From: Escherichia coli
GTDB taxonomy: Bacteria; Pseudomonadota; Gammaproteobacteria; Enterobacterales; Enterobacteriaceae
Direction: 5' to 3' (one strand)
NCBI RefSeq assembly: GCF_044324875.1
Contig: NZ_CP172185.1
DNA length: 64,000 nt
The notes under the pieces were generated by a model that was not told the origin of the DNA, did not search any database, and saw only the letters and a program-made list of their open reading frames with translations. Positions 4,196 through 62,192 of this stretch are shown piece after piece. The first letter of the stretch is position 1, and each line of letters begins with the position of its first letter. The position numbers and the translations under genes are program-made.

Positions 4196-4220
4196 AGAAT
4201 AAATTCCGTTTAACAAAGAA

Positions 4221-5884: not shown

Positions 5885-5893
5885 GATTGTTCC

Positions 5894-7629: not shown

Positions 7630-8651
7630 TAGCTCGTCACCAATTTTTGATAGTCGGCGTCACTTAATGGGCAATGCCAGAACAGTTGGGCGTAATGCTG
7701 CATGTCACTTTTAAACTGGCGATTGATGGCGGGATCCAGCCAGGCGTGAAGTCTGCGTAATCCCAGAAGACGGTTGATTCCCGGCGGGGCATCCAGCCAG
7801 CCAAAGGGCAGGCCACTTAAAAATAAGATGCGTTGTTCCGCAACCGCTTTCACGCCCTGCCAGAGAGGATCACGACGAATAAAATCTGCAGTAACGGCCT
7901 CCTGAACCAGAATAATATCCGGCTGCCAGCGCAGGAGATTTTCCATGGAAACCTGTGTCAGACCGTGGCGATCGGCTATTTGCGCGACGTTATGCAAACC
8001 TAATAATTCCGCCGCCTCGGTATGCAACGAACCCTGTAAGCCCGTTTCCAGCCCTCGAGGACCGCGCGCAGCATAAAAGCTGAGGTTAGCGGCGGGTGAG
8101 GTGGCGAATGCCTGAGCTTCACCAACGAAGCGGCTGGCGAGATTGGCTTGTTCTGCGGCGCGGTGCTCTTCGCCTAACGTTTTGCCAAGCGTTGTTAACT
8201 GTTCTGCTGATTGTTCCAGTTTCCCGTTAAGCAATAACCAGGGTATTTGTGTCTGTTCGCTAACCTGCCGTGCCTGGGAGATCCAGGTTTCATCCGTATT
8301 GCCGCAATCAACGACCAAATCGGGATGTAACGCCATAAGCCCTTCCAGCGAGAGTGTGCTGGCGCGCCCGGCGAGTCGTCCCAGCCTGGGTAACTGGCGA
8401 ATGTGCTCTGGCAATGGAATTAATGCCTGACGGGCAAAATCAAAAGAGGAAAAACCGACCATTTTTTCTGGCGCGACAGCCAGCAATAGCAAATCGGCGG
8501 GCGCACCTGCGCTGACGATGCGTGTAATGTTTTGGGCTTCGGGAAGCGTCAGTGAGGCCCAGAATTTGACTGATTGTGCAAAAGAAGGCAGATGATGCAG
8601 GAACAACGTCGACGCAAGAATCTGTGTAAACCTCCGTCTGGTTAGTGACAT
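7629..8651 (-). CDS. Periplasmic substrate-binding protein of the ABC importer, with a twin-arginine-like signal
   Basis: 340-aa ORF; N-terminus MSLTRRRFTQILASTLFLHHLPSFAQS has T-R-R-x-F, a hydrophobic core and an AxA-like site; first gene of a six-gene minus-strand operon. Confidence 0.75.
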   Translation of the reverse strand: MSLTRRRFTQILASTLFLHHLPSFAQSVKFWASLTLPEAQNITRIVSAGAPADLLLLAVAPEKMVGFSSFDFARQALIPLPEHIRQLPRLGRLAGRASTLSLEGLMALHPDLVVDCGNTDETWISQARQVSEQTQIPWLLLNGKLEQSAEQLTTLGKTLGEEHRAAEQANLASRFVGEAQAFATSPAANLSFYAARGPRGLETGLQGSLHTEAAELLGLHNVAQIADRHGLTQVSMENLLRWQPDIILVQEAVTADFIRRDPLWQGVKAVAEQRILFLSGLPFGWLDAPPGINRLLGLRRLHAWLDPAINRQFKSDMQHYAQLFWHCPLSDADYQKLVTS

Positions 8652-8920
8652 AAGTTATATCCTGATAATTAAAACCGCTATATATTTACATATATATCGA
8701 AAAAAATCATGTTTGATGTCAAAATTTGTCTAAAGAGACAGAATGATTTGCTTGTTGCTTAAATAACACTTTGTTCCACAAGAAAATTGTCAGGGAGAAT
8801 GGCGGAGTGGCAAAAAATATAAATAGAGGTGTAATGATTAACAAATTGATAAAATAAAATTAAAATCTTCTCTGATAAAAGAAAATAAAGGCATAGACCG
8901 TAGAATGGGGGGCATTTCGT

Positions 8921-8967
8921 GGCGAAAAAAGAGCAATGCCAATTTTATGCACATAATGGCATTGCTC
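8921..8967 (-). terminator. Candidate intrinsic terminator downstream of treA
   Basis: Perfect 11-bp inverted repeat GAGCAATGCCA (8931-8941) / TGGCATTGCTC (8957-8967) with a 15-nt loop, followed on the minus strand by a T-tract (complement of GGCGAAAAAAGA). Confidence 0.6.
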
Positions 8968-8981
8968 GATATACAGCAAAG

Positions 8982-10679
8982 TTAAGGCGTAGGTTCCGCC
9001 TCTTTTTGTTTTACCGGCTGTGTTGTTGATTCACTGAGTGGACGCGTCGCCGGAACATTGTCACACGGTTGCTCTTTCGGGCAGAGCAAATCCAGCATTT
9101 TCAGCGTCACGCCATTGGTCCAGCCAAAGCCATCCTGTAATGGATATTCGCCACCGCCGCCCCCTGTTCCGGTGGTGCTGACATCATATTTCTCGACCAG
9201 CTTCTTCTCCCGGTCATAAGTGTGCTGAACATTGGTCAGGAAGTGCCAGCTAATGTCCATCGCCACCTCGTTCTGCCCGTAGTTTTGCAACCCTTCTGTC
9301 GCCACCCATTGCAGGGGAGCCCAGCCATTTGGCGCATCCCATTGCTGTCCACTTTTCACCGACGTGGTGTTCAGGCCGCCTGGTTGCAGCAGATGTGTTT
9401 TCGTCGCCGTCGCCATTTTGTTGGCGCGATCTTTCGCTGCCGCATTGACGTACAGCGGGAACAGGGCGGCAGCGGTTAACTGATTGCGCACTTTATGACT
9501 TTTCAGGTCGTAATCGGCATACCAGCCTTGTTGATCGTTCCACAGGTATTTTTCGATCCCTTTTTGACGGGCATTCGCCAGCGTTTCGTACTGGTTTGCC
9601 ATCGCGTTATCTCCGGAAGCTTTGCTGGCGCGGGCGAGGATTTTTTCCATTTTAAACATCAGGCTGTTCAGATCGACCGGTACGATGCTGGTGGTGCGTA
9701 AGGTATTTAACTGCTGCGGATTGTCCATCCAGCGCGAGCTGAAATCCCAGCCAGACGCAGCGGCAGAGCGCAGGTCGCGGTAAATTTCAGTGGCAGGTCG
9801 ATTCGGATTGCTTTTGGCGGTGGCAATATCTTCCACCCATGACTCTGGTCGTGGCGTATCGCGATCGTCCCAGTAGCGGTTGAGAAGGGTACCATCCTGA
9901 AGTTTTACAACGCGTTTTTCCTGTTGTCCGGCTTGCAGGTTTTCAACACCGTCCATCCAGTAAGCATATTCTTTTTGCATTTGCGGCAGGTATTGCTTCA
10001 ACGCGGCATCGCCTTCATGCTGCGCCAGTAACTCTACCATCAGGGCAAAGAAGGGCGGCTGCGAGCGACTTAAATAGTAACTGCGGTTGCCGTTGGGAAT
10101 ATGACCGTAAGTGTCTATTTCATGAGCAAAATTGGCCACCATATCCGCGACTTTATCCCAGTGACCGCTTTCGGCAAGCCCCAGCATGGTGAAGTAACTG
10201 TCCCAGTAATACACTTCGCGAAAACGTCCTCCCGGCACGACATAGGGTTCCGGTAACGGCAACAGAGAATCCCATTTCTCGGTACTTTCGGTAGAACGGG
10301 TTAACACCGGCCAAAGTCCGTCTATATGTTCGCGTAGTGATTGCCCCTCTGGCGGAACATATTTCTCGCCCTCTTTCGGCAGGGTGAAATTGACGTTAAC
10401 GAAATGGCGCAGATCAAATCCGCTCTGGTTTTGCTGCATCCGATAATCAGCAAGGATCATCAGCGGATCGCTGTTCGGCACGGCATCGGCAAAGGTTTTT
10501 TGGTCCGGAAAAAGTTTGGCGTTTTGCACATCATTAAACAGCGGCCCTAATAAAATATCAGGCGGCTGTGGCGTTACCGGTGTTTCTTCTGCCTGCACCG
10601 ATAGCGCAGCGAAACACAAAAAGATGCAGGTTGGAATTAACGCCATTTTTAGCGGGCGAGAAGCTGCGGGGGATTTCAT
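8982..10679 (-). CDS. treA: Periplasmic trehalase
   Basis: ORF 8982..10682; the protein ([32 protein letters not shown]…) is recognised as TreA with signal peptide. The start is placed at the second Met to match the remembered 565-aa protein. Confidence 0.93.
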
Positions 10680-32459: not shown

Positions 32460-32994
32460 GGATACAAAAAGGGCCGCAGGCTGTTACCCCTGCGGCCGGT
32501 TTCGGGCGCATATTGCCATCACGGCAGCCTGACGCCCGTTTTCACCTTACTTCCGGTTACGCCACCAGCTGACAATCACTGCGGTAATAATCCCCGCCAG
32601 GATCGGTGCCGCCAGGTCGTGCCAGAAAATCATGGCAAACTGCGCGAGCGTCATATAGCCGCCTTGTTGTAATGACAACAATTTGCGGCTATTCTTGAAT
32701 TGTTCTGGTTCAAGATTAGCCCCCGTTCTGTTGTCAGGTTGTACCTCTCAACGTGCGGGGGTTTTCTCTTTCCAGCAACCAATGCCACCAGGGATAAAGC
32801 CCCCGCAACATTGCGCCTCACCGGATAACGCCGGCTTGGTGTGGATACTACGACTCAATTCATCTTCACTTCATCCCTGAAATGTTTGCAATGAAGAGTG
32901 CATTCCGGTTTTTCAACAGCTGTTACAGTCGTTTCATGAGTGCTCTGAATGATGCTTCCAGCTCGGGTTGCCAATATTTACTTGTGGAAGAGAT
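32460..32994. repeat. Long direct repeat unit 1 (Ldr/Rdl type I toxin-antitoxin module)
   Basis: A ~535-bp unit repeated nearly identically at ~32995-33530 (e.g. AAAAAGGGCCGCAGGCTGTTACCCCTGCGGCCGGTTTCGGGCGCATATTGCC at 32461 and 32996). Each unit contains a 35-codon ldr ORF on the minus strand. Confidence 0.85.
32547..32654 (-). CDS. ldr: Ldr-family small toxic membrane peptide (35 aa)
   Basis: Reverse-strand ORF MTLAQFAMIFWHDLAAPILAGIITAVIVSWWRNRK, recognised as an Ldr toxin; too short for the ORF track. Confidence 0.8.
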   Translation of the reverse strand: MTLAQFAMIFWHDLAAPILAGIITAVIVSWWRNRK

Positions 32995-33530
32995 AAAGAC
33001 AAAAAGGGCCGCAGGCTGTTACCCCTGCGGCCGGTTTCGGGCGCATATTGCCATCACGGCAGCCTGACGCCCGTTTTCACCTTACTTCCGGTTACGCCAC
33101 CAGCTGACAATCGCTGCGGTAATAATTCCCGCCAGGATCGGTGCTGCCAGGTCGTGCCAGAAAATCATGGCAAACTGCGCGAGCGTCATATAGCCGCCTT
33201 GTTGTAATGACAACATTTTGCGGCTATTCTTGAAGTGTCTGGTTTCAAGATTAGCCCCCGTTTTGTTGTCAGGTTTTACCTCTCAACGTGCGGGGGTTTT
33301 CTCTTTCCAGCAACCAATGCCACCAGGGATAAAGCCCCCGCAACATTGCGCCTCACCGGATAACGCCGGCTTGGTGTGGATACTACGTCTCAATTCATCT
33401 TCACTTCATCCCTGAAATGTTTGCAATAAAGAGTACATTCCGGCTTTTCAACAGCTGTTGCAGTGGTTTCGTGCAGGTTCTGGTACAGGCTCGCAATTCT
33501 GATTAACAACCTGTTCAGGTAGTATGAAGA
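32995..33530. repeat. Long direct repeat unit 2 (Ldr/Rdl type I toxin-antitoxin module)
   Basis: Second copy of the ~535-bp unit; a handful of substitutions relative to unit 1. Confidence 0.85.
33082..33189 (-). CDS. ldr: Ldr-family small toxic membrane peptide (35 aa), second copy
   Basis: Reverse-strand ORF MTLAQFAMIFWHDLAAPILAGIITAAIVSWWRNRK; differs from copy 1 by one residue (V to A). Confidence 0.8.
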   Translation of the reverse strand: MTLAQFAMIFWHDLAAPILAGIITAAIVSWWRNRK

Positions 33531-36593: not shown

Positions 36594-38024
36594 ATGGTTT
36601 TTCATTTTTTACCGGAAGTTACCGACGTTTTGAGCCGTTTCGTTCCTCGCATTATTCCGTTTTATTTACTCTTGCTGGCGGCAGGCGGTACAGCTAACGC
36701 ACAATCTACCTTCGAGCAAAAAGCGGCAAATCCCTTTGATAATAACAATGATGGTCTGCCGGATTTAGGCATGGCACCTGAAAATCATGATGGGGAAAAA
36801 CACTTTGCTGAAATTGTGAAAGATTTCGGCGAAACCAGTATGAATGATAACGGGCTGGATACTGGCGAGCAGGCAAAAGCTTTCGCATTGGGAAAAGTCC
36901 GCGATGCGCTTAGTCAACAGGTTAATCAGCACGTAGAGTCCTGGCTATCACCGTGGGGAAATGCCAGTGTTGACGTCAAAGTGGATAACGAAGGACATTT
37001 CACCGGCAGTCGTGGAAGCTGGTTTGTGCCGTTACAAGATAATGATCGTTATCTCACCTGGAGCCAGCTTGGTCTTACTCAGCAGGATGATGGGCTGGTG
37101 AGCAATGTGGGCGTTGGGCAACGCTGGGCGCGCGGCAGCTGGCTGGTGGGTTATAACACTTTTTATGACAACTTGCTGGACGAAAATCTTCAGCGAGCGG
37201 GCTTCGGTGCCGAAGCGTGGGGCGAATATTTGCGACTATCGGCAAACTTTTATCAGCCGTTTGCTGCATGGCATGAACAGACAGCCACGCAGGAACAACG
37301 GATGGCGCGCGGGTACGACCTGACAGCCCGGATGCGCATGCCGTTTTATCAACACCTCAATACCAGTGTCAGCGTAGAACAGTATTTTGGTGATCGTGTT
37401 GATTTGTTTAACTCTGGTACGGGTTATCACAATCCCGTCGCGTTGAGTCTGGGATTAAATTATACCCCAGTGCCATTAGTCACTGTGACGGCCCAGCATA
37501 AACAGGGTGAAAGTGGCGAGAATCAAAATAACCTCGGGCTGAATCTTAATTACCGCTTTGGTGTACCGCTCAAAAAACAACTTTCTGCGGGCGAGGTTGC
37601 CGAAAGTCAGTCGTTACGTGGTAGTCGCTATGACAATCCGCAGCGAAATAATCTTCCGACTCTTGAGTACCGACAGCGAAAAACGTTAACGGTGTTTCTG
37701 GCGACACCGCCGTGGGATCTAAAACCTGGCGAAACAGTGCCGCTGAAATTACAAATCCGCAGTCGTTATGGTATTCGGCAACTGATTTGGCAGGGCGATA
37801 CGCAGATATTAAGTTTAACGCCAGGCGCACAAGCCAACAGCGCGGAGGGCTGGACGCTGATCATGCCTGACTGGCAAAACGGGGAAGGGGCAAGCAATCA
37901 CTGGCGATTGTCGGTGGTGGTGGAAGATAACCAGGGGCAGCGTGTCTCCTCCAATGAGATCACGCTAACGCTTGTCGAACCGTTCGACGCATTGTCAAAC
38001 GACGAACTGCGCTGGGAACCGTAA
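36594..38024 (+). CDS. ychO: Invasin/intimin-like outer-membrane protein YchO
   Basis: 476-aa ORF with an N-terminal signal-like region and beta-barrel-like middle; position between ychN and narL; start codon not verified. Confidence 0.8.
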   Translation: MVFHFLPEVTDVLSRFVPRIIPFYLLLLAAGGTANAQSTFEQKAANPFDNNNDGLPDLGMAPENHDGEKHFAEIVKDFGETSMNDNGLDTGEQAKAFALGKVRDALSQQVNQHVESWLSPWGNASVDVKVDNEGHFTGSRGSWFVPLQDNDRYLTWSQLGLTQQDDGLVSNVGVGQRWARGSWLVGYNTFYDNLLDENLQRAGFGAEAWGEYLRLSANFYQPFAAWHEQTATQEQRMARGYDLTARMRMPFYQHLNTSVSVEQYFGDRVDLFNSGTGYHNPVALSLGLNYTPVPLVTVTAQHKQGESGENQNNLGLNLNYRFGVPLKKQLSAGEVAESQSLRGSRYDNPQRNNLPTLEYRQRKTLTVFLATPPWDLKPGETVPLKLQIRSRYGIRQLIWQGDTQILSLTPGAQANSAEGWTLIMPDWQNGEGASNHWRLSVVVEDNQGQRVSSNEITLTLVEPFDALSNDELRWEP

Positions 38025-38675
38025 TCAGAAAATGCGCTCCTGATGCACCCATACCGCTGCTTCCACGCGAGACTTGAGCTTCATTTTCTTCAGCATGTGC
38101 TTGACGTGCACTTTTACTGTGCTTTCGGTGATGTCCAGGCGGCGGGCAATCATCTTGTTCGGCAAACCCTGGGCAATCAGCTTGAGAATATCGCGCTCGC
38201 GTGGGGTTAACTGGTTAACATCGCGCTCAGTAGTGGCACGGTTAGCGCGCAAGCTGGCGGCCAGAACAGGCGTTAATGCTTCGCTTAATACCATTTCGCC
38301 AGCAGCTGCCTGATGCAATGCTTTCAGCAGATCTTCCGGTTCCATATCTTTTAACAGATAGCCATCCGCGCCGCGTTTCAGTGCGGTGACCACATCTTCT
38401 TCATGGTTAGAGACGCTGAATACCACAATGCGCCCTGAGAGGGACTTTTCGCGGAGTTTATCCAGCGTTTCCAGACCATTCATGCCGGGCATATTGAGAT
38501 CTAACAGGATCAGATCGGGATCAAGAGATTCCGCCAGTTCAATACCCTGTTCGCCATTACTCGCTTCGCCAACCACGCTGATATCTGGTGCCATACTGAT
38601 AAGCTGTTTTACGCCAGTTCGCAGCATCGGGTGATCGTCGATCAGCAGGATAGTAGCCGGTTCCTGATTACTCAT
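38025..38675 (-). CDS. narL: Nitrate/nitrite response regulator NarL
   Basis: ORF 38025..38789; the start at [25 protein letters not shown]… gives a 216-aa receiver plus LuxR-type HTH protein. Confidence 0.95.
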
Positions 38676-40464
38676 GGGTATCTCCTTGGACGTCTGTGAA
38701 AGTTTTTTCGGGAATAAAGGTGACAACCACTTCGGTGCCACCTGATTCACGACGGCGGACGCGGCAATCGCCTCGTAAACTTTGCGCACGGTCGCGCATT
38801 ATTATCATGCCGTAGTGATTGCTGCGGATGGCATTTTCAGGCACGCCGCAGCCGTTATCCTGGACGGTCAGTTTGACCTGATTATCGTTTTGCGCCACCG
38901 TCACCAAGACCTCACTCGCTTGCGAATGTTTGAGGGCGTTACTTAATGCCTCACGGGCAATTTGCAACAAGTGGATTGCCTGATGCGAAGGCACCAGACG
39001 AGGTGGCAATTGATAATCCAGCTTCACCGGGAAGCCAAATTTGGCGCTGTACTCTTCGCAACTCGCCTCCAGCGCTGGACGTAATCCAGGCTCGGTGAGC
39101 TGCAAGCGGAATGTGGTGAGCAATTCACGCAACTGCGCCCAGGATGCATTCAGTTCGTTACGGATCTGACTTAACAGTTCGCGGCTGCTTTCTGGCAGCG
39201 CATCGCCCTGCATCTGTAAACAACTCACCTGCATCTTCATGCAAGAGAGAGATTGGGCAATAGAATCATGCAGTTCGCGCGCAATGGTGGCACGCTCTTC
39301 CATCACGATCAACTGTTGCTGACGTTCCTGATGGCGATCCAACGCCAGCGTGGCGGTGAGTTGTTCAACCAGGGTATCCACCAGTTGTTGTTGATCATGG
39401 CTAAGATGACGCCCCTGCGGTAGGGTCGCCAGCAAAATGCCGTACTGCGTATGAGAGTCAGCCAGCCGCCACTTCAGGGTTGTGCCGCGATCGCCAACGG
39501 GTAATACGCCGCGCGGGCAGAGCTGGCAGCCTTTATCATCACAAGTCATATCTGGCTGGCAGGTAAACTCCTGATGATTCTCTTCATCATCAGTGTCATA
39601 CACCCGCAGTTCGATATCACGTAGCAGGGTCAAATTCTGTAAGCCGTTGAGTACAGGTGACAGGCGTTCACACAGCGGGGCGCGGGAATGCAAACGGCGG
39701 TTAGCCTGCCATAAAAAAGAGAGGATCTGATTTTTATGCTCCAGCCCGGCAGTTTTCTCCTGAACCCGCTGCTCAAGTACGGCATAACTTTCGGCCAGTT
39801 CTGCAGACATATTGTTCAATGCAGTTCCAAGCATCGCCATTTCGTTGCGCCCGCTGATGTTTGCGCGTTGGGTAAAATCGCGATGGCTGACGGCACTCGC
39901 CATTGCCAGCAGTTGCCGCCACGGTTGTAGCAATCGCGCCCGCAACCAGATAATAGTGAACACCAGTAAAAGTGCCATAAATACCGCCATTACCCGATGG
40001 ACCAGCACCACTGTCTCAATGCGCATTTCCGTGGTGCGGTCAAAACCAGATACCAGCTGATCAAGCCCGGCAACAAACTGGCTGACATCCGCTGACACCG
40101 TTTCGCGGTTTTGTGCACGCATCAGCGTAGGGATCAGTTCATTACGCCAGTAATCTTGTAAACCCTGTAATTGCGCCAGTTGTCCGTCTCCTTCTGCTGC
40201 TCGGGTTAACTCGGCGCTAAATGCCGTTTGTTCCATTTCTTTAATTAAGGGCTTGTCTTTCTCGCTTAATGGCACTGCTGCCAACAGACGGTAACTTTGC
40301 ATGCGCAGCGATCCCGCTTTGTTGATCGCATGGGCGCTGCCCTGAACGCCTTGCACCAGCCAGCCAGAAACCGCCATCCCTGCCAGTCCAATAGCAGTAG
40401 AAAGCAACACAATAAGCGCAACCTGATTAACCAGGGTGAGCGGAGAGAGACAACGTTTAAGCAT
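38668..40464 (-). CDS. narX: Nitrate/nitrite sensor histidine kinase NarX
   Basis: 598-aa ORF with a periplasmic P-box region, HAMP domain and histidine kinase core (HDSIAQSLS); overlaps narL by 8 bp. Confidence 0.95.
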
Positions 40465-40729
40465 GTAAACCTCTTCCTTCAGGCTTTAAATGAGCAATAA
40501 CCTTAATGAATGTGACGATACATTCTGGAATGGCAGTATTCTCGGCTATTGGCTGAAGTATACCCATACCCGGAAAGAGTTACTCCTTATTTGCCGTGTG
40601 GTTAGTCGCTTTACATCGGTAAGGGTAGGGATTTTACAGCACCGTGAAAAATCTCATAATTTTTATGAAATCACTGTACTCACTATGGGTAATGATAAAT
40701 ATCAATGATAGATAAAGTTATCTTATCGT

Positions 40730-40743
40730 TTGATTTACATCAA
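40730..40743 (+). promoter_or_regulatory. Fnr box upstream of narK
   Basis: TTGATTTACATCAA matches TTGAT-N4-ATCAA, ~60 nt upstream of the narK start. Confidence 0.7.
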
Positions 40744-40802
40744 ATTGCCTTTAGCTACAGACACTAAGGTGGCAGACATCGAAACGAGTATCAGAGGTGT
40801 CT

Positions 40803-42194
40803 ATGAGTCACTCATCCGCCCCCGAAAGGGCTACTGGAGCTGTCATTACAGATTGGCGACCGGAAGATCCTGCGTTCTGGCAACAACGCGGTCAACGTAT
40901 TGCCAGCCGCAACCTGTGGATTTCCGTTCCCTGTCTGCTGCTGGCGTTTTGCGTATGGATGTTGTTCAGCGCTGTTGCGGTGAACTTACCAAAAGTTGGT
41001 TTTAATTTTACGACCGATCAGCTATTTATGTTGACTGCGCTGCCTTCGGTTTCTGGCGCGTTATTACGTGTTCCATACTCCTTTATGGTTCCTATCTTCG
41101 GTGGTCGTCGCTGGACGGCGTTCAGCACCGGTATTCTGATTATTCCTTGCGTCTGGCTGGGTTTTGCCGTGCAGGATACCTCCACGCCTTATAGCGTCTT
41201 CATCATCATCTCTCTGCTGTGCGGCTTTGCTGGCGCGAACTTCGCTTCCAGTATGGCAAACATCAGCTTCTTCTTTCCGAAACAGAAGCAGGGTGGCGCG
41301 CTGGGTCTGAATGGTGGTCTGGGCAACATGGGCGTCAGCGTCATGCAGTTGGTTGCTCCGCTGGTGGTATCACTGTCGATTTTCGCAGTATTTGGTAGCC
41401 AGGGTGTCAAACAGCCGGATGGGACTGAGCTGTATCTGGCGAATGCGTCCTGGGTATGGGTGCCGTTCCTTGCCATCTTCACCATTGCGGCGTGGTTTGG
41501 CATGAACGATCTTGCTACCTCGAAAGCCTCCATCAAGGAGCAGTTGCCGGTACTCAAACGGGGTCATCTGTGGATTATGAGCCTGCTGTATCTGGCAACC
41601 TTCGGCTCCTTCATCGGCTTCTCCGCGGGCTTTGCGATGCTGTCAAAAACGCAGTTCCCGGATGTTCAGATTCTGCAATACGCTTTCTTCGGGCCGTTTA
41701 TTGGTGCGCTGGCGCGTTCTGCAGGTGGTGCATTATCTGACCGTCTGGGCGGAACTCGTGTCACACTGGTGAACTTTATCCTGATGGCGATTTTCAGCGG
41801 CCTGCTGTTCCTGACCTTACCGACTGACGGGCAGGGCGGAAGCTTCATGGCGTTCTTCGCGGTCTTCCTGGCGCTGTTCCTGACAGCTGGGCTGGGTAGT
41901 GGTTCCACTTTCCAGATGATTTCCGTGATCTTCCGTAAACTGACAATGGATCGCGTGAAAGCAGAAGGGGGTTCTGACGAACGTGCGATGCGTGAAGCGG
42001 CAACCGACACGGCGGCGGCGCTGGGTTTCATCTCTGCGATTGGCGCGATTGGTGGCTTCTTTATCCCGAAAGCGTTCGGTAGCTCGCTGGCATTAACGGG
42101 TTCGCCAGTCGGCGCAATGAAAGTATTTTTGATTTTCTATATCGCCTGTGTAGTGATTACCTGGGCGGTATATGGTCGGCATTCTAAAAAATAA
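40803..42194 (+). CDS. narK: Nitrate/nitrite antiporter (MFS)
   Basis: ORF 40797..42194; the start at MSHSSAPERATGAVITDWRPEDPAFWQQ… gives a 463-aa, 12-TM protein. Confidence 0.95.
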   Translation: MSHSSAPERATGAVITDWRPEDPAFWQQRGQRIASRNLWISVPCLLLAFCVWMLFSAVAVNLPKVGFNFTTDQLFMLTALPSVSGALLRVPYSFMVPIFGGRRWTAFSTGILIIPCVWLGFAVQDTSTPYSVFIIISLLCGFAGANFASSMANISFFFPKQKQGGALGLNGGLGNMGVSVMQLVAPLVVSLSIFAVFGSQGVKQPDGTELYLANASWVWVPFLAIFTIAAWFGMNDLATSKASIKEQLPVLKRGHLWIMSLLYLATFGSFIGFSAGFAMLSKTQFPDVQILQYAFFGPFIGALARSAGGALSDRLGGTRVTLVNFILMAIFSGLLFLTLPTDGQGGSFMAFFAVFLALFLTAGLGSGSTFQMISVIFRKLTMDRVKAEGGSDERAMREAATDTAAALGFISAIGAIGGFFIPKAFGSSLALTGSPVGAMKVFLIFYIACVVITWAVYGRHSKK

Positions 42195-42319
42195 ATCTTA
42201 ATATTTGATTATCCTTTGCGCGGCATGATGTCGCGCTTTTTTTATCTGTCGTTTAGTTACAACATACTCATGTGTGAGTGGCTTATTTCGCCGGATTTCA
42301 TTAAGAGCCATTAATATGT

Positions 42320-42349
42320 TACCCATGGGGAATACTCCTTAATACCCAT
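42320..42349 (+). promoter_or_regulatory. NarL heptamer cluster in the narG upstream control region
   Basis: TACCCAT (42320-42326), TACTCCT (42334-42340) and TACCCAT (42343-42349) match the NarL heptamer TACYYMT, ~250 nt upstream of narG. Confidence 0.7.
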
Positions 42350-42482
42350 CTGCATAAAAATCTTAATAGTTTAAATAACTACAGGTATAAAACGTCTTAA
42401 TTTACAGTCTGTTATGTTGTGGCTGTTAATTATCCTAAAGGGGTATCTTAGGAATTTACTTTATTTTTCATCCCCATCACTC

Positions 42483-42496
42483 TTGATCGTTATCAA
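42483..42496 (+). promoter_or_regulatory. Fnr box of the narG promoter
   Basis: TTGATCGTTATCAA is a perfect TTGAT-N4-ATCAA, ~95 nt upstream of the narG ATG. Confidence 0.8.
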
Positions 42497-42587
42497 TTCT
42501 CACGCTGTTTCAGAGCGTTACCTTGCCCTTAAACATTAGCAATGTCGATTTATCAGAGGGCCGACAGGCTCCCACAGGAGAAAACCG

Positions 42588-45500
42588 ATGAGTAAATTCC
42601 TGGACCGGTTTCGCTACTTCAAACAGAAGGGTGAAACCTTTGCCGATGGGCATGGCCAGCTTCTCAATACCAACCGTGACTGGGAGGATGGATATCGCCA
42701 GCGTTGGCAGCATGACAAAATCGTCCGCTCTACCCACGGGGTAAACTGCACCGGCTCCTGCAGCTGGAAAATCTACGTCAAAAACGGTCTGGTGACCTGG
42801 GAAACCCAGCAGACTGATTATCCTCGTACCCGTCCGGATCTGCCAAACCATGAACCTCGCGGCTGCCCGCGCGGTGCCAGCTACTCCTGGTATCTTTACA
42901 GTGCCAACCGCCTGAAATACCCGATGATGCGCAAACGCCTGATGAAAATGTGGCGTGAAGCGAAGGCGCTGCATAGCGATCCGATTGAGGCATGGGCTTC
43001 TATCATTGAAGACGCCGATAAAGCGAAAAGCTTTAAGCAGGCGCGTGGACGCGGTGGTTTTGTTCGTTCTTCCTGGCAGGAAGTGAACGAACTGATCGCC
43101 GCATCTAACGTTTACACCATCAAAAACTACGGCCCGGACCGTGTCGCTGGCTTCTCGCCAATTCCGGCAATGTCGATGGTTTCTTACGCGTCGGGTGCGC
43201 GTTATCTCTCGCTGCTTGGCGGTACTTGCTTAAGCTTCTACGACTGGTACTGCGACCTGCCTCCTGCGTCTCCGCAAACCTGGGGCGAGCAGACTGACGT
43301 ACCGGAATCTGCTGACTGGTACAACTCCAGCTACATCATCGCCTGGGGTTCAAACGTGCCGCAGACGCGTACTCCGGATGCTCACTTCTTTACTGAAGTG
43401 CGTTACAAAGGCACCAAAACTGTTGCCGTCACACCGGACTACGCTGAAATCGCCAAACTGTGCGATCTGTGGCTGGCACCGAAACAGGGCACCGACGCAG
43501 CAATGGCGCTGGCGATGGGCCACGTAATGCTGCGTGAATTCCACCTCGACAACCCAAGCCAGTATTTCACCGACTATGTGCGTCGCTACACCGACATGCC
43601 GATGCTGGTGATGCTGGAAGAACGCGACGGTTACTACGCCGCAGGTCGTATGCTGCGTGCTGCTGATCTGGTGGATGCGCTGGGCCAGGAAAACAATCCG
43701 GAATGGAAAACTGTCGCCTTTAATACCAATGGCGAAATGGTTGCGCCGAACGGTTCTATTGGCTTCCGCTGGGGCGAGAAGGGCAAATGGAATCTTGAGC
43801 AGCGCGACGGCAAAACTGGCGAAGAAACCGAGCTGCAACTGAGTCTGCTGGGTAGCCAGGATGAGATCGCTGAGGTGGGCTTCCCGTACTTTGGTGGCGA
43901 CGGCACGGAACACTTCAACAAAGTGGAGCTGGAAAACATTCTGCTGCACAAACTGCCGGTAAAACGCCTGCAACTGGCTGATGGCAGCACCGCACTGGTG
44001 ACCACCGTTTATGATCTGACACTGGCAAACTACGGTCTGGAACGTGGCCTGAACGACGTTAACTGCGCAACCAGCTATGACGATGTGAAAGCTTACACTC
44101 CGGCGTGGGCCGAGCAAATCACTGGCGTTTCTCGTAGCCAGATTATCCGTATTGCCCGTGAATTTGCCGATAACGCTGACAAGACGCACGGTCGTTCGAT
44201 GATTATCGTCGGTGCGGGGCTGAACCACTGGTATCACCTCGATATGAACTATCGTGGTCTGATCAACATGCTGATTTTCTGCGGCTGTGTCGGTCAGAGC
44301 GGGGGTGGCTGGGCGCACTATGTAGGTCAGGAAAAACTGCGTCCGCAAACCGGCTGGCAGCCGCTGGCGTTTGCTCTTGACTGGCAGCGTCCGGCGCGTC
44401 ACATGAACAGCACCTCTTATTTCTATAACCACTCCAGCCAGTGGCGTTATGAAACCGTGACCGCAGAAGAGTTGTTGTCGCCGATGGCGGATAAATCCCG
44501 TTATACCGGACACTTGATCGACTTTAACGTCCGTGCAGAACGTATGGGCTGGCTGCCGTCTGCGCCGCAGTTAGGCACTAACCCGCTAACTATCGCTGGC
44601 GAAGCGAAAAAAGCGGGCATGAATCCGGTGGATTACACCGTGAAATCCCTGAAAGAGGGTTCTATCCGTTTTGCGGCAGAACAACCAGAAAACGGTAAAA
44701 ACCACCCGCGTAACCTGTTCATCTGGCGTTCTAACCTGCTCGGTTCTTCCGGTAAAGGTCATGAGTTTATGCTCAAGTACCTGCTGGGGACGGAGCACGG
44801 TATCCAGGGCAAAGACCTGGGGCAGCAGGGCGGCGTGAAGCCGGAAGAAGTGGACTGGCAGGACAACGGTCTGGAAGGCAAGCTGGATCTGGTGGTGACG
44901 CTGGACTTCCGTCTGTCGAGCACCTGTCTCTATTCCGACATCATTTTGCCGACGGCGACCTGGTACGAAAAAGACGACATGAATACTTCGGATATGCATC
45001 CGTTTATTCACCCGCTGTCTGCGGCGGTCGATCCGGCCTGGGAAGCGAAAAGCGACTGGGAAATCTACAAAGCCATCGCGAAGAAATTCTCCGAAGTGTG
45101 CGTTGGTCATCTGGGTAAAGAAACTGACATCGTCACGCTGCCTATCCAGCACGACTCTGCCGCTGAACTGGCGCAACCGCTGGATGTGAAAGACTGGAAA
45201 AAAGGCGAATGCGATCTGATCCCAGGTAAAACTGCACCGCACATTATGGTCGTAGAGCGCGATTATCCGGCAACTTTCGAACGCTTTACCTCTATCGGCC
45301 CGCTGATGGAGAAAATCGGTAACGGCGGTAAAGGGATTGCCTGGAACACCCAGAGCGAGATGGATCTGCTGCGTAAGCTCAACTACACCAAAGCGGAAGG
45401 TCCGGCAAAAGGTCAGCCGATGCTCAATACCGCAATTGATGCGGCAGAGATGATCCTGACGCTGGCACCGGAAACCAATGGTCAGGTAGCTGTAAAAGCC

Positions 45501-46331
45501 TGGGCTGCCCTGAGCGAGTTTACCGGTCGTGACCATACGCATCTGGCGCTGAATAAAGAAGACGAGAAGATTCGCTTCCGCGATATTCAGGCACAGCCGC
45601 GCAAAATCATCTCCAGCCCGACCTGGTCTGGCCTTGAAGATGAACACGTTTCTTACAACGCCGGTTACACCAACGTTCACGAGCTGATCCCGTGGCGTAC
45701 GCTCTCTGGCCGTCAGCAGCTGTATCAGGATCACCAGTGGATGCGTGATTTCGGTGAAAGCCTGCTGGTTTATCGTCCGCCGATCGACACCCGTTCGGTG
45801 AAAGAAGTGATGGGCCAGAAATCCAACGGCAACCCGGAAAAAGCGCTCAACTTCCTGACGCCGCACCAGAAGTGGGGTATCCACTCCACCTACAGCGACA
45901 ACCTGCTGATGCTGACTTTAGGTCGCGGTGGTCCGGTGGTCTGGCTGAGTGAAGCCGATGCCAAAGAGCTGGGTATCGCCGATAACGACTGGATTGAAGT
46001 CTTCAACAGCAACGGTGCACTGACTGCCCGTGCGGTTGTCAGCCAGCGTGTTCCGGCAGGGATGACCATGATGTACCACGCGCAGGAACGTATCGTTAAC
46101 CTGCCTGGTTCGGAAATTACCCAACAGCGTGGTGGTATCCATAATTCGGTCACCCGTATCACGCCGAAACCGACGCATATGATCGGCGGCTATGCCCATC
46201 TGGCATACGGCTTTAACTACTATGGCACCGTAGGTTCTAACCGCGATGAGTTTGTTGTAGTGCGTAAGATGAAGAACATTGACTGGTTAGATGGCGAAGG
46301 CAATGACCAGGTACAGGAGAGCGTAAAATGA
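42588..46331 (+). CDS. narG: Respiratory nitrate reductase A, alpha subunit
   Basis: 1247-aa ORF with the N-terminal [4Fe-4S] motif (HGVNCTGSCSWKIYVK) and a large molybdopterin oxidoreductase body. Confidence 0.97.
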   Translation: MSKFLDRFRYFKQKGETFADGHGQLLNTNRDWEDGYRQRWQHDKIVRSTHGVNCTGSCSWKIYVKNGLVTWETQQTDYPRTRPDLPNHEPRGCPRGASYSWYLYSANRLKYPMMRKRLMKMWREAKALHSDPIEAWASIIEDADKAKSFKQARGRGGFVRSSWQEVNELIAASNVYTIKNYGPDRVAGFSPIPAMSMVSYASGARYLSLLGGTCLSFYDWYCDLPPASPQTWGEQTDVPESADWYNSSYIIAWGSNVPQTRTPDAHFFTEVRYKGTKTVAVTPDYAEIAKLCDLWLAPKQGTDAAMALAMGHVMLREFHLDNPSQYFTDYVRRYTDMPMLVMLEERDGYYAAGRMLRAADLVDALGQENNPEWKTVAFNTNGEMVAPNGSIGFRWGEKGKWNLEQRDGKTGEETELQLSLLGSQDEIAEVGFPYFGGDGTEHFNKVELENILLHKLPVKRLQLADGSTALVTTVYDLTLANYGLERGLNDVNCATSYDDVKAYTPAWAEQITGVSRSQIIRIAREFADNADKTHGRSMIIVGAGLNHWYHLDMNYRGLINMLIFCGCVGQSGGGWAHYVGQEKLRPQTGWQPLAFALDWQRPARHMNSTSYFYNHSSQWRYETVTAEELLSPMADKSRYTGHLIDFNVRAERMGWLPSAPQLGTNPLTIAGEAKKAGMNPVDYTVKSLKEGSIRFAAEQPENGKNHPRNLFIWRSNLLGSSGKGHEFMLKYLLGTEHGIQGKDLGQQGGVKPEEVDWQDNGLEGKLDLVVTLDFRLSSTCLYSDIILPTATWYEKDDMNTSDMHPFIHPLSAAVDPAWEAKSDWEIYKAIAKKFSEVCVGHLGKETDIVTLPIQHDSAAELAQPLDVKDWKKGECDLIPGKTAPHIMVVERDYPATFERFTSIGPLMEKIGNGGKGIAWNTQSEMDLLRKLNYTKAEGPAKGQPMLNTAIDAAEMILTLAPETNGQVAVKAWAALSEFTGRDHTHLALNKEDEKIRFRDIQAQPRKIISSPTWSGLEDEHVSYNAGYTNVHELIPWRTLSGRQQLYQDHQWMRDFGESLLVYRPPIDTRSVKEVMGQKSNGNPEKALNFLTPHQKWGIHSTYSDNLLMLTLGRGGPVVWLSEADAKELGIADNDWIEVFNSNGALTARAVVSQRVPAGMTMMYHAQERIVNLPGSEITQQRGGIHNSVTRITPKPTHMIGGYAHLAYGFNYYGTVGSNRDEFVVVRKMKNIDWLDGEGNDQVQESVK

Positions 46332-49294: not shown

Positions 49295-49430
49295 ATGGGC
49301 ACGGTACGGGGTGAGTTGTCGGATGCGCTTCGCTTATCCGAACAACAGGGAAGGATATTGTAGGTCCGGTAAACGCGGTGCCATTGGGCAGAATTAGCTC
49401 GGAGTAACAGGTTTTGAGTATTTACAGGAA

Positions 49431-49964
49431 GTGATGGTGGTTGGGGAAGGATTATTCAGCGCTGCGCGCTTCACCCTTCGGGTCGTTGCCTGCGGCAACG
49501 CTCTCTCGCTGGCGCTCGAGTCGAACCTTGGTCGAAGCTTCTCATCCTTCCCCGCTTGGGCAGAATATTTAATTACGGATTCGTTTGAGAGTTCAGGGAC
49601 TTTTGAAAGTGATGGTGGTGGGGGAAGGATTACTCAGCGCTGCGCGCTTCGCCCTTCGGGTCGTTGCCTGCGGCAACGCTCTCTCGCTGGCGCTCGAGTC
49701 GAGCCTTGGTCGAAGCTTCTCATCCTTCCCCGCTTGGGCAGAATATTTAATTACGGATTCGTTTGAGAGTTCAGGGACTTTTGAAAGTGATGGTGGTGGG
49801 GGAAGGATTACTCAGCGCTGCGCGCTTCGCCCTTCGGGTCGTTGCCTGCGGCAACGCTCTCTCGCTGGCGCTCGAGTCGAGCCTTGGTCGAAGCTTCTCA
49901 TCCTTCCCCGCTTGGGCAGAATATTTAATTACGGATTCGTTTGAGAGTTCAGGGACTTTTGAAA
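49431..49964 (-). repeat. Three tandem 178-bp repeats downstream of tRNA-Tyr (rtT-type units)
   Basis: Units begin at 49431, 49609 and 49787 (exact 178-bp period); units 2 and 3 are identical, unit 1 has a few substitutions. Each begins with a copy of the tRNA-Tyr 3' end (TGGTGGTGGGGGAAGGATT). Confidence 0.85.
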
Positions 49965-49968
49965 GTGA

Positions 49969-50053
<85 letters not shown>

Positions 50054-56575: not shown

Positions 56576-56808
56576 TAAGAATTTCTTTACTGACAGGGTG
56601 AGCAGGGCGCTTTTATCCTGTCAGTTCGTTTTACTCACTTCATCCGGTGTATATACCCTTCTCGACAGTTCTTTAACGCCACTATACCCCTCACAGAGCG
56701 CTTTTACAGTGACGTTGACTTGTGGACCTGTAAAGTACAATATCGCTGTGTGTAGGCGTTATACATCGCCGTAAATATGATGAAGGCAAATGCGGTAATG
56801 ACTCCAAC

Positions 56809-57312
56809 TTATTGATAGTGTTTTATGTTCAGATAATGCCCGATGACTTTGTCATGCAGCTCCACCGATTTTGAGAACGACAGCGACTTCCGTCCCAGCC
56901 GTGCCAGGTGCTGCCTCAGATTCAGGTTATGCCGCTCAATTCGCTGCGTATATCGCTTGCTGATTACGTGCAGCTTTCCCTTCAGGCGGGATTCATACAG
57001 TGGCCAGCCATCCGTCATCCATATCACCACGTCAAAGGGTGACAGCAGGCTCATAAGACGCCCCAGCGTCGCCATAGTGCGTTCACCGAATACGTGCGCA
57101 ACAACCGTCTTCCGGAGCCTGTCATACGCGTAAAACAGCCAGCGCTGGCGCGATTTAGCCCCGACATAGCCCCACTGTTCGTCCATTTCCGCGCAGACGA
57201 TGACGTCACTGCCCGGCTGTATGCGCGAGGTTACCGACTGCGGCCTGAGTTTTTTAAGTGACGTAAAATCGTGTTGAGGCCAACGCCCATAATGCGGGCA
57301 GTTGCCCGGCAT
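56809..57312 (-). CDS. insB: IS1 transposase InsB
   Basis: 167-aa [61 protein letters not shown]…. Confidence 0.92.
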
Positions 57313-57506
57313 CCAACGCCATTCATGGCCATATCAATGATTTTCTGGTGCGTACCGGGTTGAGAAGCGGTGTAAGTGAACTGCAGTTGCCATGTTTTAC
57401 GGCAGTGAGAGCAGAGATAGCGCTGATGTCCGGCGGTGCTTTTGCCGTTACGCACCACCCCGTCAGTAGCTGAACAGGAGGGACAGCTGATAGAAACAGA
57501 AGCCAC
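57231..57506 (-). CDS. insA: IS1 protein InsA
   Basis: 91-aa [46 protein letters not shown]…; overlaps insB in the -1 frame. The A6C slippery run is visible as GTTTTTTAA on the plus strand (~57248-57256). Confidence 0.92.
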
Positions 57507-57602
57507 TGGAGCACCTCAAAAACACCATCATACACTAAATCAGTAAGTTGGCAGCATCACCGGCAAATGCTGTCGGTTTATGGGAAAGTTGCTTTGGGTA
57601 AA

Positions 57603-57632
57603 ACAAAAAAACGGCCCCAGAAGGGACCGTTT
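57603..57632 (-). terminator. Intrinsic terminator downstream of adhE
   Basis: Plus strand AAAAAAACGGCCCCAGAAGGGACCGTTTA: a stem-loop with a T-run on the minus strand, ~25 nt past the adhE stop. Confidence 0.7.
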
Positions 57633-60331: not shown

Positions 60332-60807
60332 AATGCTCTCCTGATAATGTTAAACTTTTTTAGTAAATCATCTGCTCGAATACGAGAGTATAGTCAGTGC
60401 GGTGATGATTTGCTTAACCGATGAAAATCAAAAGCTTACTCGCGCTCACACTCACTGTGATTTACTAAAAGAGTTTAAACATTAGAGTTATTATCTCTAA
60501 TGCGTCACTTCCAGGTGGCGTAAGCAAGATTACTCACTTCTGGGTACTGATTACGTGATCCAAATCAAATTTTTGCAAAGCTGACACCTTTCAGCATCGC
60601 TTTTCGCCATTATAGCTAACAGTTAATAAATTGTAGTATGATTTGTTGGCTACATTATCATGTTTTGCACAACCAGATAACAATAACGAATGATAGCAAT
60701 TTTAAGTAGTTAGGAGGTGAAAAATGCTGTCAAAAGGCGTATTGTCAGCGCGTCTTTTTAACCTTATTTATGGCTAACATTATCCGGCTTTTGCTTCGGA
60801 GCTAACC

Positions 60808-61495: not shown

Positions 61496-62192
61496 TCGTC
61501 ATTATTTTTACTTTGTTCCGGTGCAGTTATCAAAAGCAAAGGGAATGGGTAAAAATATTCTTCTTGAATTACAGTTGGTTATAAGGATTTCCTTAACTGC
61601 TTCTCCTCACCATCATGTTATTTTCGCCACATCATAATCCTGGGCTTGCTGAAGAATAATTGAAATGATATTAGTTATTCCACTGCCTTTGGTAGAGGAA
61701 AGTGCTAAATAATAATCAATTGTTAAATTATTGTGCATTTCACTACTGGAACTGTAATCAGAAAAGATAGACATGCTTAACCAATCTCTATTTGATTGAA
61801 TTGAAAGATGTTTGTTAAGACATGGATGCAAGCTATAGATTCTGATACGGTCAATAAAAGAGAATTGCTTAACAATTTTGCAAAATGTATTGGCGAGTAA
61901 GAAGCGCATTTGGTACTTTCCGGGCAACCGCCAGACGATTCTTTATTGGTAATGAGAATAATTAACAATTAAAGAGCGTCGCGAAAGAATAATGTGTCTC
62001 GACAGGGGAGACACAGTACGAATCGACATAAGGTGATCGTCTGAATCACCAGAATAAATAAAGTCGGTGATAGTAATACGTAACGATAAAGTAACCTGAC
62101 AGCAGAAAGTCTCCGAGCCTGTGCAGGGTCCCAATCCGGGATTACACATGCTGGTTAATACCAGTAATTATAATGAGGGAGTCCAAAAAACA

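Follow-up and report, generated by a model that had tools for sequence, protein, structure and literature searches.

FNR and NarL sites at the narK and narG promoters of an Escherichia coli strain, compared with K-12 and across genera

The control regions of narK and narGHJI in the DNA analyzed here, a 64-kb stretch of E. coli chromosome (the window), are very probably (about 95%, in our estimate) the native promoters of the strain, and their architecture is that of the experimentally characterized K-12 promoters. This control region is already known at textbook level, and our analysis has little importance beyond annotation quality; what it adds is a complete site map of the strain and a cross-genus footprint. 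It also confirms that a reader of the sequence alone can recover a classic dual-signal (oxygen and nitrate) promoter architecture. Our own results are the sequence, the spacing, the identity to K-12, the statistical enrichment and the cross-genus conservation. For the binding of FNR, NarL and IHF, and for expression that depends on these proteins, we rely on published work in K-12 and Salmonella; where transcription starts in this strain and where exactly the IHF cores lie are our inferences.

NarX, NarL, NarK and NarG are intact and match their family profiles (Table 1). The region was found in 5415 of 5426 complete genomes, and it is 100% identical in many sequenced E. coli genomes; RefSeq annotates narL on DNA that is identical to the window across the query span. 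Compared with the K-12 proteins, NarL carries a single amino acid change (T33S), NarX three (R92G, A113T and V520L), NarK one and NarG eight. We assign the narK start to the ATG at 40803, not to the GTG at 40797 given by the mechanical list of open reading frames, and narG, the first gene of narGHJI, begins with the ATG at 42588. A preliminary description of this DNA had stated that the cognate NarX-NarL two-component system is encoded immediately upstream. This holds: narX and narL lie directly upstream of narK in divergent orientation, and the system is present and intact, with NCBIfam equivalog matches and full-length open reading frames that have one to three substitutions relative to K-12.

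Table 1. Genes, promoter elements and regulator sites of the narX-narK-narG region (window coordinates; site centers are relative to the predicted transcription starts)
Feature	Position	Strand	Details
narL	38025-38675	-	Response regulator, 216 aa; NCBIfam equivalog NF007935, 422.7 bits
narX	38668-40464	-	Nitrate sensor histidine kinase, 598 aa; NCBIfam equivalog NF007896, 1204.7 bits
Distal NarL heptamers, narX-narK control region	40561-40587	+	TACCCAT 40561-67 (-214 of narK), TACTCCT 40581-87 (-194); exact TACYYMT, identical in K-12
A/T-rich block, candidate IHF region	40632-40665		TTTTACAG...GTGAAAAAT...TTTTTA; conserved columns in cross-genus stack
Sigma-70-like match	40633-40660	+	TTTACA-16-CATAAT; promoter-scan score 10/12
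Proximal NarL site, narK	40677-40691		TACTCAC 40677-83, + strand (-98); 1-bp spacer; ATGGGTA 40685-91
Second, weaker FNR-like box, narK	40692-40705		ATGATAAATATCAA; one consensus mismatch; center -79.5
Primary FNR box, narK	40730-40743		TTGATTTACATCAA; exact consensus; center -41.5, class II position
narK -10 hexamer	40765-40770	+	TAAGGT; conserved across genera; center of FNR box 28 bp away
narK +1, predicted	~40777-40778	+	From reported -41.5 spacing; 25-nt leader to ATG 40803
narK	40803-42194	+	Nitrate/nitrite antiporter, 463 aa; TIGR00886 NarK family, 393.8 bits
narK 3'UTR: predicted short NarS sRNA form and intrinsic terminator	42181-42243	+	5' end approximate; terminator scan and fold
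narK terminator	42218-42243	+	Stem 42218-42236, T run 42237-42243
Distal NarL cluster, narG	42320-42349	+	TACCCAT 42320-26 (-208), TACTCCT 42333-39 (-195), TACCCAT 42343-49 (-185)
IHF-like region, narG	42386-42415		A/T tract TATAAAACGTCTTAAT, then core TTACAGTCTGTTA at 42402-42414; center ~-123
Proximal, high-affinity NarL region, narG	42430-42455		TTATCCT, AGGGGTA, TAGGAAT
Degenerate heptamer TTATCCT, narG	42430-42436		Center -98; AA spacer before next heptamer
AGGGGTA, narG	42439-42445	-	TACCCCT on - strand; center -89
TAGGAAT, narG	42449-42455		Center -79; database-listed narG site
FNR box, narG	42483-42496		TTGATCGTTATCAA; exact consensus; center -41.5
narG -10 hexamer	42519-42524	+	TACCTT; highly conserved; 29 bp downstream of FNR-box center
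narG +1, predicted	~42531	+	57-nt leader to ATG 42588
narG	42588-46331	+	Nitrate reductase A alpha subunit, 1247 aa; TIGR01580 equivalog, 2591 bits

FNR boxes and core promoters

The exact motif TTGAT-N4-ATCAA has only two matches in the window by direct reading and pattern search, the narK box and the narG box, and these agree to the base with the Fnr boxes proposed earlier at 40730 and 42483. Dinucleotide-preserving shuffles contained a mean of 0.13 exact boxes, with at least two boxes in 5 of 300 shuffles. The FNR sites of the K-12 narK and narG promoters are reported at position -41.5 (PMC3688515, Table 1), and the FNR sites listed under the K-12 ChIP-seq peaks have exactly these two 14-mer sequences, the narK box having a PWM score of 17.06 under the narX/narK peak (PMC3688515). 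In an fnr mutant of K-12, narK and narG are at 0.07 and 0.02 of wild type, respectively (PMC3688515). The sites listed from ChIP in K-12 map exactly onto window coordinates, including the narG site (K-12 v2 coordinate 1278982), which maps onto the window box. Judged from their exact consensus and their -41.5 placement, both boxes read as class II FNR-activated sites.

Transcription starts for narK and narG were carried over from K-12. The spacing between FNR center and -10 hexamer at narG equals the 29 bp reported as the class II optimum (PMC9314961). A generic sigma-70 scan of the sequence detected neither FNR-dependent promoter, in keeping with the lack of a -35 element at class II promoters; its best match was a sigma-70-like element 110 bp upstream of the narK +1 (40633-40660), for which we know of no role. 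The second FNR-like box of narK, at -79.5, occurs in Escherichia only, with no conservation beyond. The K-12 FNR ChIP summit (1277080-82, v2 coordinates) falls between this box and the one at -41.5, and the -79.5 box is presumably a bound FNR site, going by database annotation.

NarL and IHF-like sites

The preliminary description had placed a cluster of NarL heptamers at 42320-42349, and this stretch does contain three exact TACYYMT heptamers, all on the same strand. Setting the FNR box at -41.5 puts their centers at -208, -195 and -185, so that this distal cluster matches the "-195 region" NarL footprint published for narG (PMC4549865). The proximal sites coincide with the "-89 region," which is the high-affinity NarL footprint (PMC4549865). 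By motif and position, narG carries NarL-type heptamers in both the -195 and the -89 regions, where the footprints were published.

For narK, the proximal site is an inverted pair in which ATGGGTA at 40685-91 reads TACCCAT on the minus strand, with its center at -90, and in which the heptamers are separated by 1 bp versus the canonical 2. We found no useful literature on the positions of the narK sites, the primary mapping papers being outside the reach of our search, and the MotifAdjuster supplements do not contain them. NarL footprinting of K-12 narK was reportedly done by Li, Kustu and Stewart in 1994. The narK NarL positions given here, and the -79.5 FNR site, are therefore proposed from sequence, conservation and database annotation.

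IHF is required at narG (PMC4549865, PMC9314961, PMC3688515). No match to the IHF consensus WATCAANNNNTTR at one mismatch or less was found between the narG NarL regions, and the core that we tentatively place there, read by eye, is a weak match with three mismatches; the block that it forms with the A/T tract (core TTACAG-N4-TTA) is partly conserved across loci. In the narX-narK control region the A/T-rich block at 40632-40665 is a candidate for the equivalent role, and the narX/narK FNR site bears the flag "IHF ChIP-chip" (PMC3688515, supplementary file 6).

With these elements in place, the earlier site list can be judged as correct in every site that it gave and incomplete at both promoters. 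At narG it omitted the -98/-89 NarL sites and the IHF region; at narK it gave the -41.5 box and omitted all of the NarL heptamers (-214, -194, -98 and -90) as well as the -79.5 FNR-like box.

Comparison with K-12, conservation and alternative readings

The narX-narK intergenic region is 338 bp long both in the window and in K-12 MG1655 and differs by one SNP and no indel; the SNP (A at 40670 in the window, G in K-12) is at -108 of narK, outside recognized sites. Every NarL heptamer of the K-12 narK promoter recurs unchanged in the window, as do its FNR box (-41.5) and its FNR-like box (-79.5). The stretch from the narK terminator to the narG start codon differs by point changes and one 1-bp indel, which lies, with a few substitutions, just 3' of the narK terminator and upstream of the -208 heptamer. 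From that heptamer to the ATG only two SNPs and no indel separate the strains (-113, T in the window for G in K-12; -31, T for C), and the FNR box, the -10 hexamer, the heptamers at -208, -195, -185, -98, -89 and -79 and all of the spacings are the same. Since no indel falls between sites, every site is at its K-12 position. The expectation that the sites lie where narK and narG control requires is thereby upheld, and the alignment revealed no displacement from the mapped promoters.

A phylogenetic footprint of about 120 loci from about 40 genera showed which elements hold position while their flanks diverge: the FNR boxes, the -10 hexamers, the narG NarL heptamers at -195, -185, -98 and -89, and the narK NarL heptamers at -214, -194 and -98. 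Of 53 narK loci, 52, among them Vibrio, have an FNR box 62 to 85 bp (mostly 65 to 68 bp) from the start of the gene. At narG, 95 of 118 loci have a box 93 to 148 bp (mostly 93 to 103 bp) from the ATG, with conserved half-sites around a variable N4 core. Among the narG heptamers, that at -195 keeps its offset as an exact match in 55 of 95 loci and has at most one mismatch in 65 of 94, and matches at this looser threshold occur at -185 in 39, at -89 in 47 and at -98 in 40 of 94 loci; the GGGGTA of the -89 site is strongly conserved across genera, while the -208 heptamer is poorly conserved, with no conservation outside Escherichia. At narK, the -214 and -194 heptamers are exact at the same FNR-box offsets in 27 and 29, respectively, of 51 distinct other-genus loci, and the -98 heptamer, visible as a block in the stack, has at most one mismatch in 40 of 51. 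Deep conservation thus applies to FNR at -41.5, to narG NarL at -195, -98 and -89 and to narK NarL at -214, -194 and -98; the FNR boxes and the -195 heptamer stay in place in dozens of enterobacterial genera. Two elements, the narK -79.5 box and the -208 heptamer of narG, are Escherichia specific. The architecture of the two promoters is under strong purifying selection across the Enterobacteriaceae.

These data bear directly on whether the motif matches could be chance occurrences in A/T-rich intergenic DNA, with no regulatory role. The NarL heptamer is a low-information motif, and single copies are common (45 in the 64 kb versus 32 expected); FNR-like boxes with one mismatch are also present inside genes of the window. 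However, each of the two exact FNR boxes, the sole ones in the window, stands at class II spacing from a conserved -10 hexamer and upstream of a nitrate respiration operon, and each is a ChIP-bound site in K-12. Across genera, boxes and heptamers keep their positions, and none of the 300 shuffles had three same-strand heptamers within 30 bp. We give chance next to no credence. The narK -98/-90 pair could also be mainly a target of NarP/NarQ, responding to nitrite, and not of NarL, as it is an inverted pair, the type that NarP prefers, and reads as a true 7-2-7 site in some genera. NarP binds 7-2-7 arrangements only (PMC4549865), whereas the E. coli spacing is 7-1-7, which makes this assignment very improbable.

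A different question is whether the alleles of this strain (narG -31 T, narG -113 T, narK -108 A, NarX R92G/A113T/V520L and NarL T33S) measurably shift promoter strength or the nitrate response relative to K-12. Few E. coli records have the narG core promoter with T at -31: this minority allele falls in the gap that separates the FNR box from the -10 hexamer, and the 66-mer that carries it is identical in only 392 of 5416 E. coli records. Both NarX and NarL, moreover, bear amino acid substitutions. Nevertheless, the SNPs of the window leave the consensus positions of the FNR half-sites, NarL heptamers and -10 hexamers unchanged; T at -31 is tolerated, since about half of the other genera have it, as does E. 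albertii; and the haplotype is 100% identical in many isolates. We regard a measurable shift as quite unlikely and favor native promoters with the K-12 architecture.

The narK 3' end and related control systems

The region between narK and narG contains a further element, as the narK 3' end fits the small RNA NarS: it has a Rho-independent terminator as well as a seed that can pair with the ribosome-binding site of nirC. Both NarS and the terminator were missing from the earlier list. K-12 annotates narS (b4813) at the equivalent locus. The predicted NarS-nirC duplex has 18 bp, covers nirC -13 to +5 and has an energy of -21.2 kcal/mol, and 0 of 500 shuffles were as good. A scan of 38000-43500 against Rfam, which has no NarS family, gave no NarS match. 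An L20_leader match over the narK terminator was rejected as an artifact of the A/T-rich terminator, since its 26 bits are below the gathering score of 58.7. In Salmonella, NarS is an sRNA derived from the narK 3'UTR by RNase E processing and is Hfq dependent (Wang et al. 2020, PMC7038943), and narK and NarS both depend on NarL and FNR (PMC7038943). The 3'UTR of the window is similar in length to the 63-nt Salmonella NarS and likewise has a terminator hairpin and a seed against the nirC Shine-Dalgarno sequence and start, whereas the E. coli NarS described in PMC7038943 is the longer K-12 form with an insertion that the window lacks.

This insertion makes for the main structural difference from K-12 in the region: the window lacks a 122-bp insert located after the narK stop codon. 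The insert, which we provisionally call ERIC-like after the ERIC primer and consensus sequences, produced only a sub-threshold V_AS5 match in an Rfam scan of the K-12 sequence, which identifies nothing. It is a common polymorphism, present in 2457 of 5416 complete E. coli genomes (~45%) and absent from ~55%, the window included, and the insert-bearing narK 3'UTR of K-12 thus represents just ~45% of E. coli genomes. We speculate that its presence or absence switches lineages between a long, K-12-type and a short, Salmonella-type NarS precursor, which could alter the processing or abundance of NarS and in turn the cross-regulation of nirC when nitrate is respired. Together with the hypervariable spacer between -185 and -98 of narG, this would cause nitrate respiration control to differ quantitatively between E. 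coli lineages despite invariant FNR and NarL sites, a proposal that we consider rather unlikely as it stands.

The site map is consistent with a model in which, under anaerobiosis, [4Fe-4S] FNR dimers would occupy TTGAT-N4-ATCAA at -41.5, overlapping the -35 region, and bring RNA polymerase to the weak -10 elements TACCTT (narG) and TAAGGT (narK). Nitrate would lead, via NarX, to phosphorylation of NarL. Phosphorylated NarL would then bind narG at -98/-89 with high affinity and at -208/-195/-185 with lower affinity, in line with its footprints at the -89 and -195 regions (PMC4549865, PMC9314961), and would bind narK at -98/-90 and at -214/-194. A bend that IHF introduces between these NarL regions would place the distal sites near the promoter. 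Given both the FNR and the NarL-P inputs, full induction would therefore need anaerobiosis together with nitrate. Transcription of narK would stop at the intrinsic terminator at 42218-42243, the 3'UTR before it yielding NarS, and narG would be transcribed from its own promoter downstream of that terminator.

The promoters of nirB, nrfA, fdnG and napF resemble those of narG and narK in having an FNR site near -41.5 or -42.5 and NarL heptamers upstream. Each of those four relies on one canonical 7-2-7 site, to which NarP can bind too, in contrast to narG and narK, which have two separate heptamer regions, at about -90 and about -200, with a bend between them.

The nar locus and its FNR boxes

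The window consists of E. coli chromosomal DNA and is collinear with positions 1,242,808-1,302,989 of K-12 MG1655. Of 5426 complete E. coli genomes, 5415 contain the region at 40465-42587, and many sequenced strains match it with 100% identity; 13 matches to the narK-narG control region in the E. coli genome collection are to records typed as plasmids. NarL, NarX, NarK, and NarG are all intact, each matching its expected NCBIfam model and differing from its K-12 counterpart at 1 to 8 residues.

A preliminary description of the sequence had placed Fnr boxes at 40730 and 42483, and a perfect TTGAT-N4-ATCAA is read at both places, TTGATTTACATCAA at narK and TTGATCGTTATCAA at narG. These are the only exact matches in 64 kb, while dinucleotide-preserving shuffles averaged 0.13 such sites, with at least two in 5 of 300 cases. 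Both K-12 sites lie at -41.5, and the same two 14-mers are listed under K-12 FNR ChIP-seq peaks at v2 coordinates 1277107 and 1278982 (Myers et al. 2013, PMC3688515); with the 777-bp v2-to-v3 offset applied, both map precisely to the box positions in the window. Setting the boxes at -41.5 would place the +1 of narG near 42531 and that of narK near 40778, from which the other promoter positions are counted. The second narK box, ATGATAAATATCAA, may be occupied as well; the K-12 FNR ChIP summit falls between the two narK boxes (PMC3688515), which is consistent with occupancy of both but does not prove it. At 60555-60568, in the adhE/ychE intergenic region, the one-mismatch FNR box GTGATCCAAATCAA equals, in sequence and mapped position, another entry in the FNR ChIP-seq site list of Myers et al. 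(PMC3688515).

Going by the K-12 literature on identical sequence, FNR would act under anaerobiosis as a class II activator of the narK and narG promoters, NarL phosphorylated by NarX would bind both upstream regions, and full narG induction would also need IHF. An fnr mutation in K-12 reduces narK to 0.07 and narG to 0.02 of the wild-type level (PMC3688515), and in Salmonella both narK and NarS require NarL and FNR, not NarP (PMC7038943).

Features of the narXL-narK-narGHJI region (window coordinates; promoter positions relative to the putative +1 of narK or narG)
Feature	Coordinates	Strand	Promoter position	Sequence or length	Preliminary description
narL	38025-38675	minus
narX	38668-40464	minus
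narX-narK divergent intergenic region				338 bp
narK NarL heptamer	40561-67		-214		missed
narK NarL heptamer	40581-87		-194		missed
narK NarL heptamer	40677-83		-98		missed
narK NarL heptamer	40685-91	minus	-90		missed
narK second FNR-like box	40692-40705		-79.5	ATGATAAATATCAA	missed
narK FNR box	40730-40743		-41.5	TTGATTTACATCAA	claimed
narK	ATG 40803 to 42194
narK 3'UTR terminator hairpin	42218-42243
narK-narG intergenic region				393 bp
narG NarL heptamer	42320-26		-208		claimed
narG NarL heptamer	42333-39		-195		claimed
narG NarL heptamer	42343-49		-185		claimed
narG high-affinity NarL region	42430-42445		-98, -89	TTATCCT-AA-AGGGGTA	missed
narG database-listed site (3' of the -89 heptamer)			-79	TAGGAAT	missed
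narG FNR box	42483-42496		-41.5	TTGATCGTTATCAA	claimed
narG -10 hexamer (29 bp from FNR box centre)	42519-24			TACCTT	missed
narGHJI	narG ATG at 42588

NarL sites and promoter layout

Since TACYYMT heptamers number 45 in the window against 32 expected, a lone heptamer is weak evidence; a same-strand triplet spanning no more than 30 bp occurred in 0 of 300 shuffles. The NarL cluster reported at 42320-42349 consists of three such same-strand heptamers, whose centres, once the FNR box is set at -41.5, correspond to the "-195 region" of narG that NarL-P protects (PMC4549865). The high-affinity region combines a perfect minus-strand heptamer at -89 with a degenerate partner at -98. Between the two narG NarL regions, an A/T tract with a TTACAG-N4-TTA core near -123 matches the IHF consensus weakly and is likely an IHF site, the exact core of which we infer; the preliminary description did not include it. 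The distance from FNR box centre to -10 hexamer is the reported class II optimum (PMC9314961). Within Escherichia the narG spacer from -185 to -98 (42360-42425, which separates the distal NarL region from the proximal one) is hypervariable, with the flanking sites and protein-binding blocks fixed; over 42300-42470, 1774 E. coli records, about one third, are just 90-95% identical.

At narK, the proximal NarL site of E. coli (40677-40691) is best read as an inverted heptamer pair separated by 1 bp, TACTCAC-T-ATGGGTA; Kosakonia and related genera have the canonical 7-2-7 form, TACTCAT-AA-ATGAGCA, in these columns. A strong sigma-70-like match facing narK (TTTACA-16-CATAAT, 10/12, plus strand, 40633-40660) precedes the FNR-dependent start by about 110 bp and falls within a partly conserved block, which could alternatively be an IHF site or belong to the divergent narX promoter; the block shares a TTTACAG motif with the narG IHF-like region. 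The two promoters have one layout: FNR at -41.5, NarL at about -90 to -98, a spacer probably bent by IHF, and NarL at about -195 to -214.

Conservation across genera

A DNA-pattern scan of a species-representative genome collection with the narG N-terminus yielded 120 loci from about 40 genera. In 95 of 118 loci, an FNR box that departs from the consensus at no more than one base precedes narG by 93-148 bp, mostly 93-103, its half-sites conserved and its N4 core variable. When loci are aligned on this box, 55 of 95 have an exact -195 heptamer at the identical offset, and 65 of 94 have it with no more than one mismatch; at the same tolerance, the -185, -98, and -89 heptamers are found in 39, 40, and 47 of 94 loci, respectively, and the -10 hexamer is almost invariant. 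In 52 of 53 loci, including Vibrio, 62-85 bp (mostly 65-68) separate the narK FNR box from the start codon, and the narK heptamers at -214, -194, and -98 keep their positions. Conservation of the narG -208 heptamer and the narK -79.5 box is limited to Escherichia. Such positional conservation constitutes independent evidence of function.

Comparison with K-12

The narK-narG intergenic region measures 515 bp in K-12, and the difference from the window is accounted for entirely by a 122-bp K-12 insert directly after the narK stop codon, upstream of every narG control site. Going by ERIC primer and consensus sequences, this insert is a candidate ERIC-like element. Of 5416 complete E. coli genomes, 2457 carry it. 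The narK 3'UTR of the window, at 42181-42243 (5' end approximate), represents the NarS sRNA in its short form, like that of Salmonella, and lacks the insert, whereas the K-12 counterpart (L001:7338-7521) carries it. Upstream of the terminator hairpin, ATATTTGATTATCCTTT is predicted to form an 18-bp duplex with K-12 nirC -13..+5 (-21.2 kcal/mol), equalled by 0 of 500 shuffles. The NarS paper shows E. coli solely with the insertion (PMC7038943).

The narX-narK intergenic region aligns with K-12 without gaps and with a single SNP (40670, A for G, narK -108). Beyond the narK terminator, the narK-narG region shows only point differences and one 1-bp indel near 42262, upstream of the first narG heptamer. 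At narG -31 (42500) and -113 (42418) the window reads T, against C and G, respectively, in K-12. Only 392 of 5416 E. coli records match the 66-bp core promoter (42470-42535) exactly, making it a minority haplotype; T at -31 also occurs in E. albertii and in roughly half the other genera. The -31, -113, and -108 SNPs and the absent insert touch no recognised consensus position.

Elsewhere, a 6.8-kb segment (2249-9021) has no K-12 counterpart, ycgY standing in its place there, but is shared by 2150 of 5426 complete E. coli genomes. Its products are a TonB-dependent receptor, a FecCD-type iron ABC transporter, ModD, and a SAM methyltransferase. The window lacks the IS5U copy upstream of oppA (61705-61708) and has about 820 bp of different sequence in place of the K-12 ISZ region (56794-57615). 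Repeats with a 178-bp offset occupy the tpr/tyrT-tyrV region (49429-49987), and ldr/rdl toxin-antitoxin repeats are present at 32464-33483.

Alignment with K-12 revealed no displaced site at narK or narG, and the original interpretation therefore stands. The narK/narG Fnr-NarL observation is confirmed, and the reading of Fnr/NarL control, borne out by site positions that match K-12, is supported, though the initial list of sites was incomplete. The architecture itself is that already known for narK and narG.
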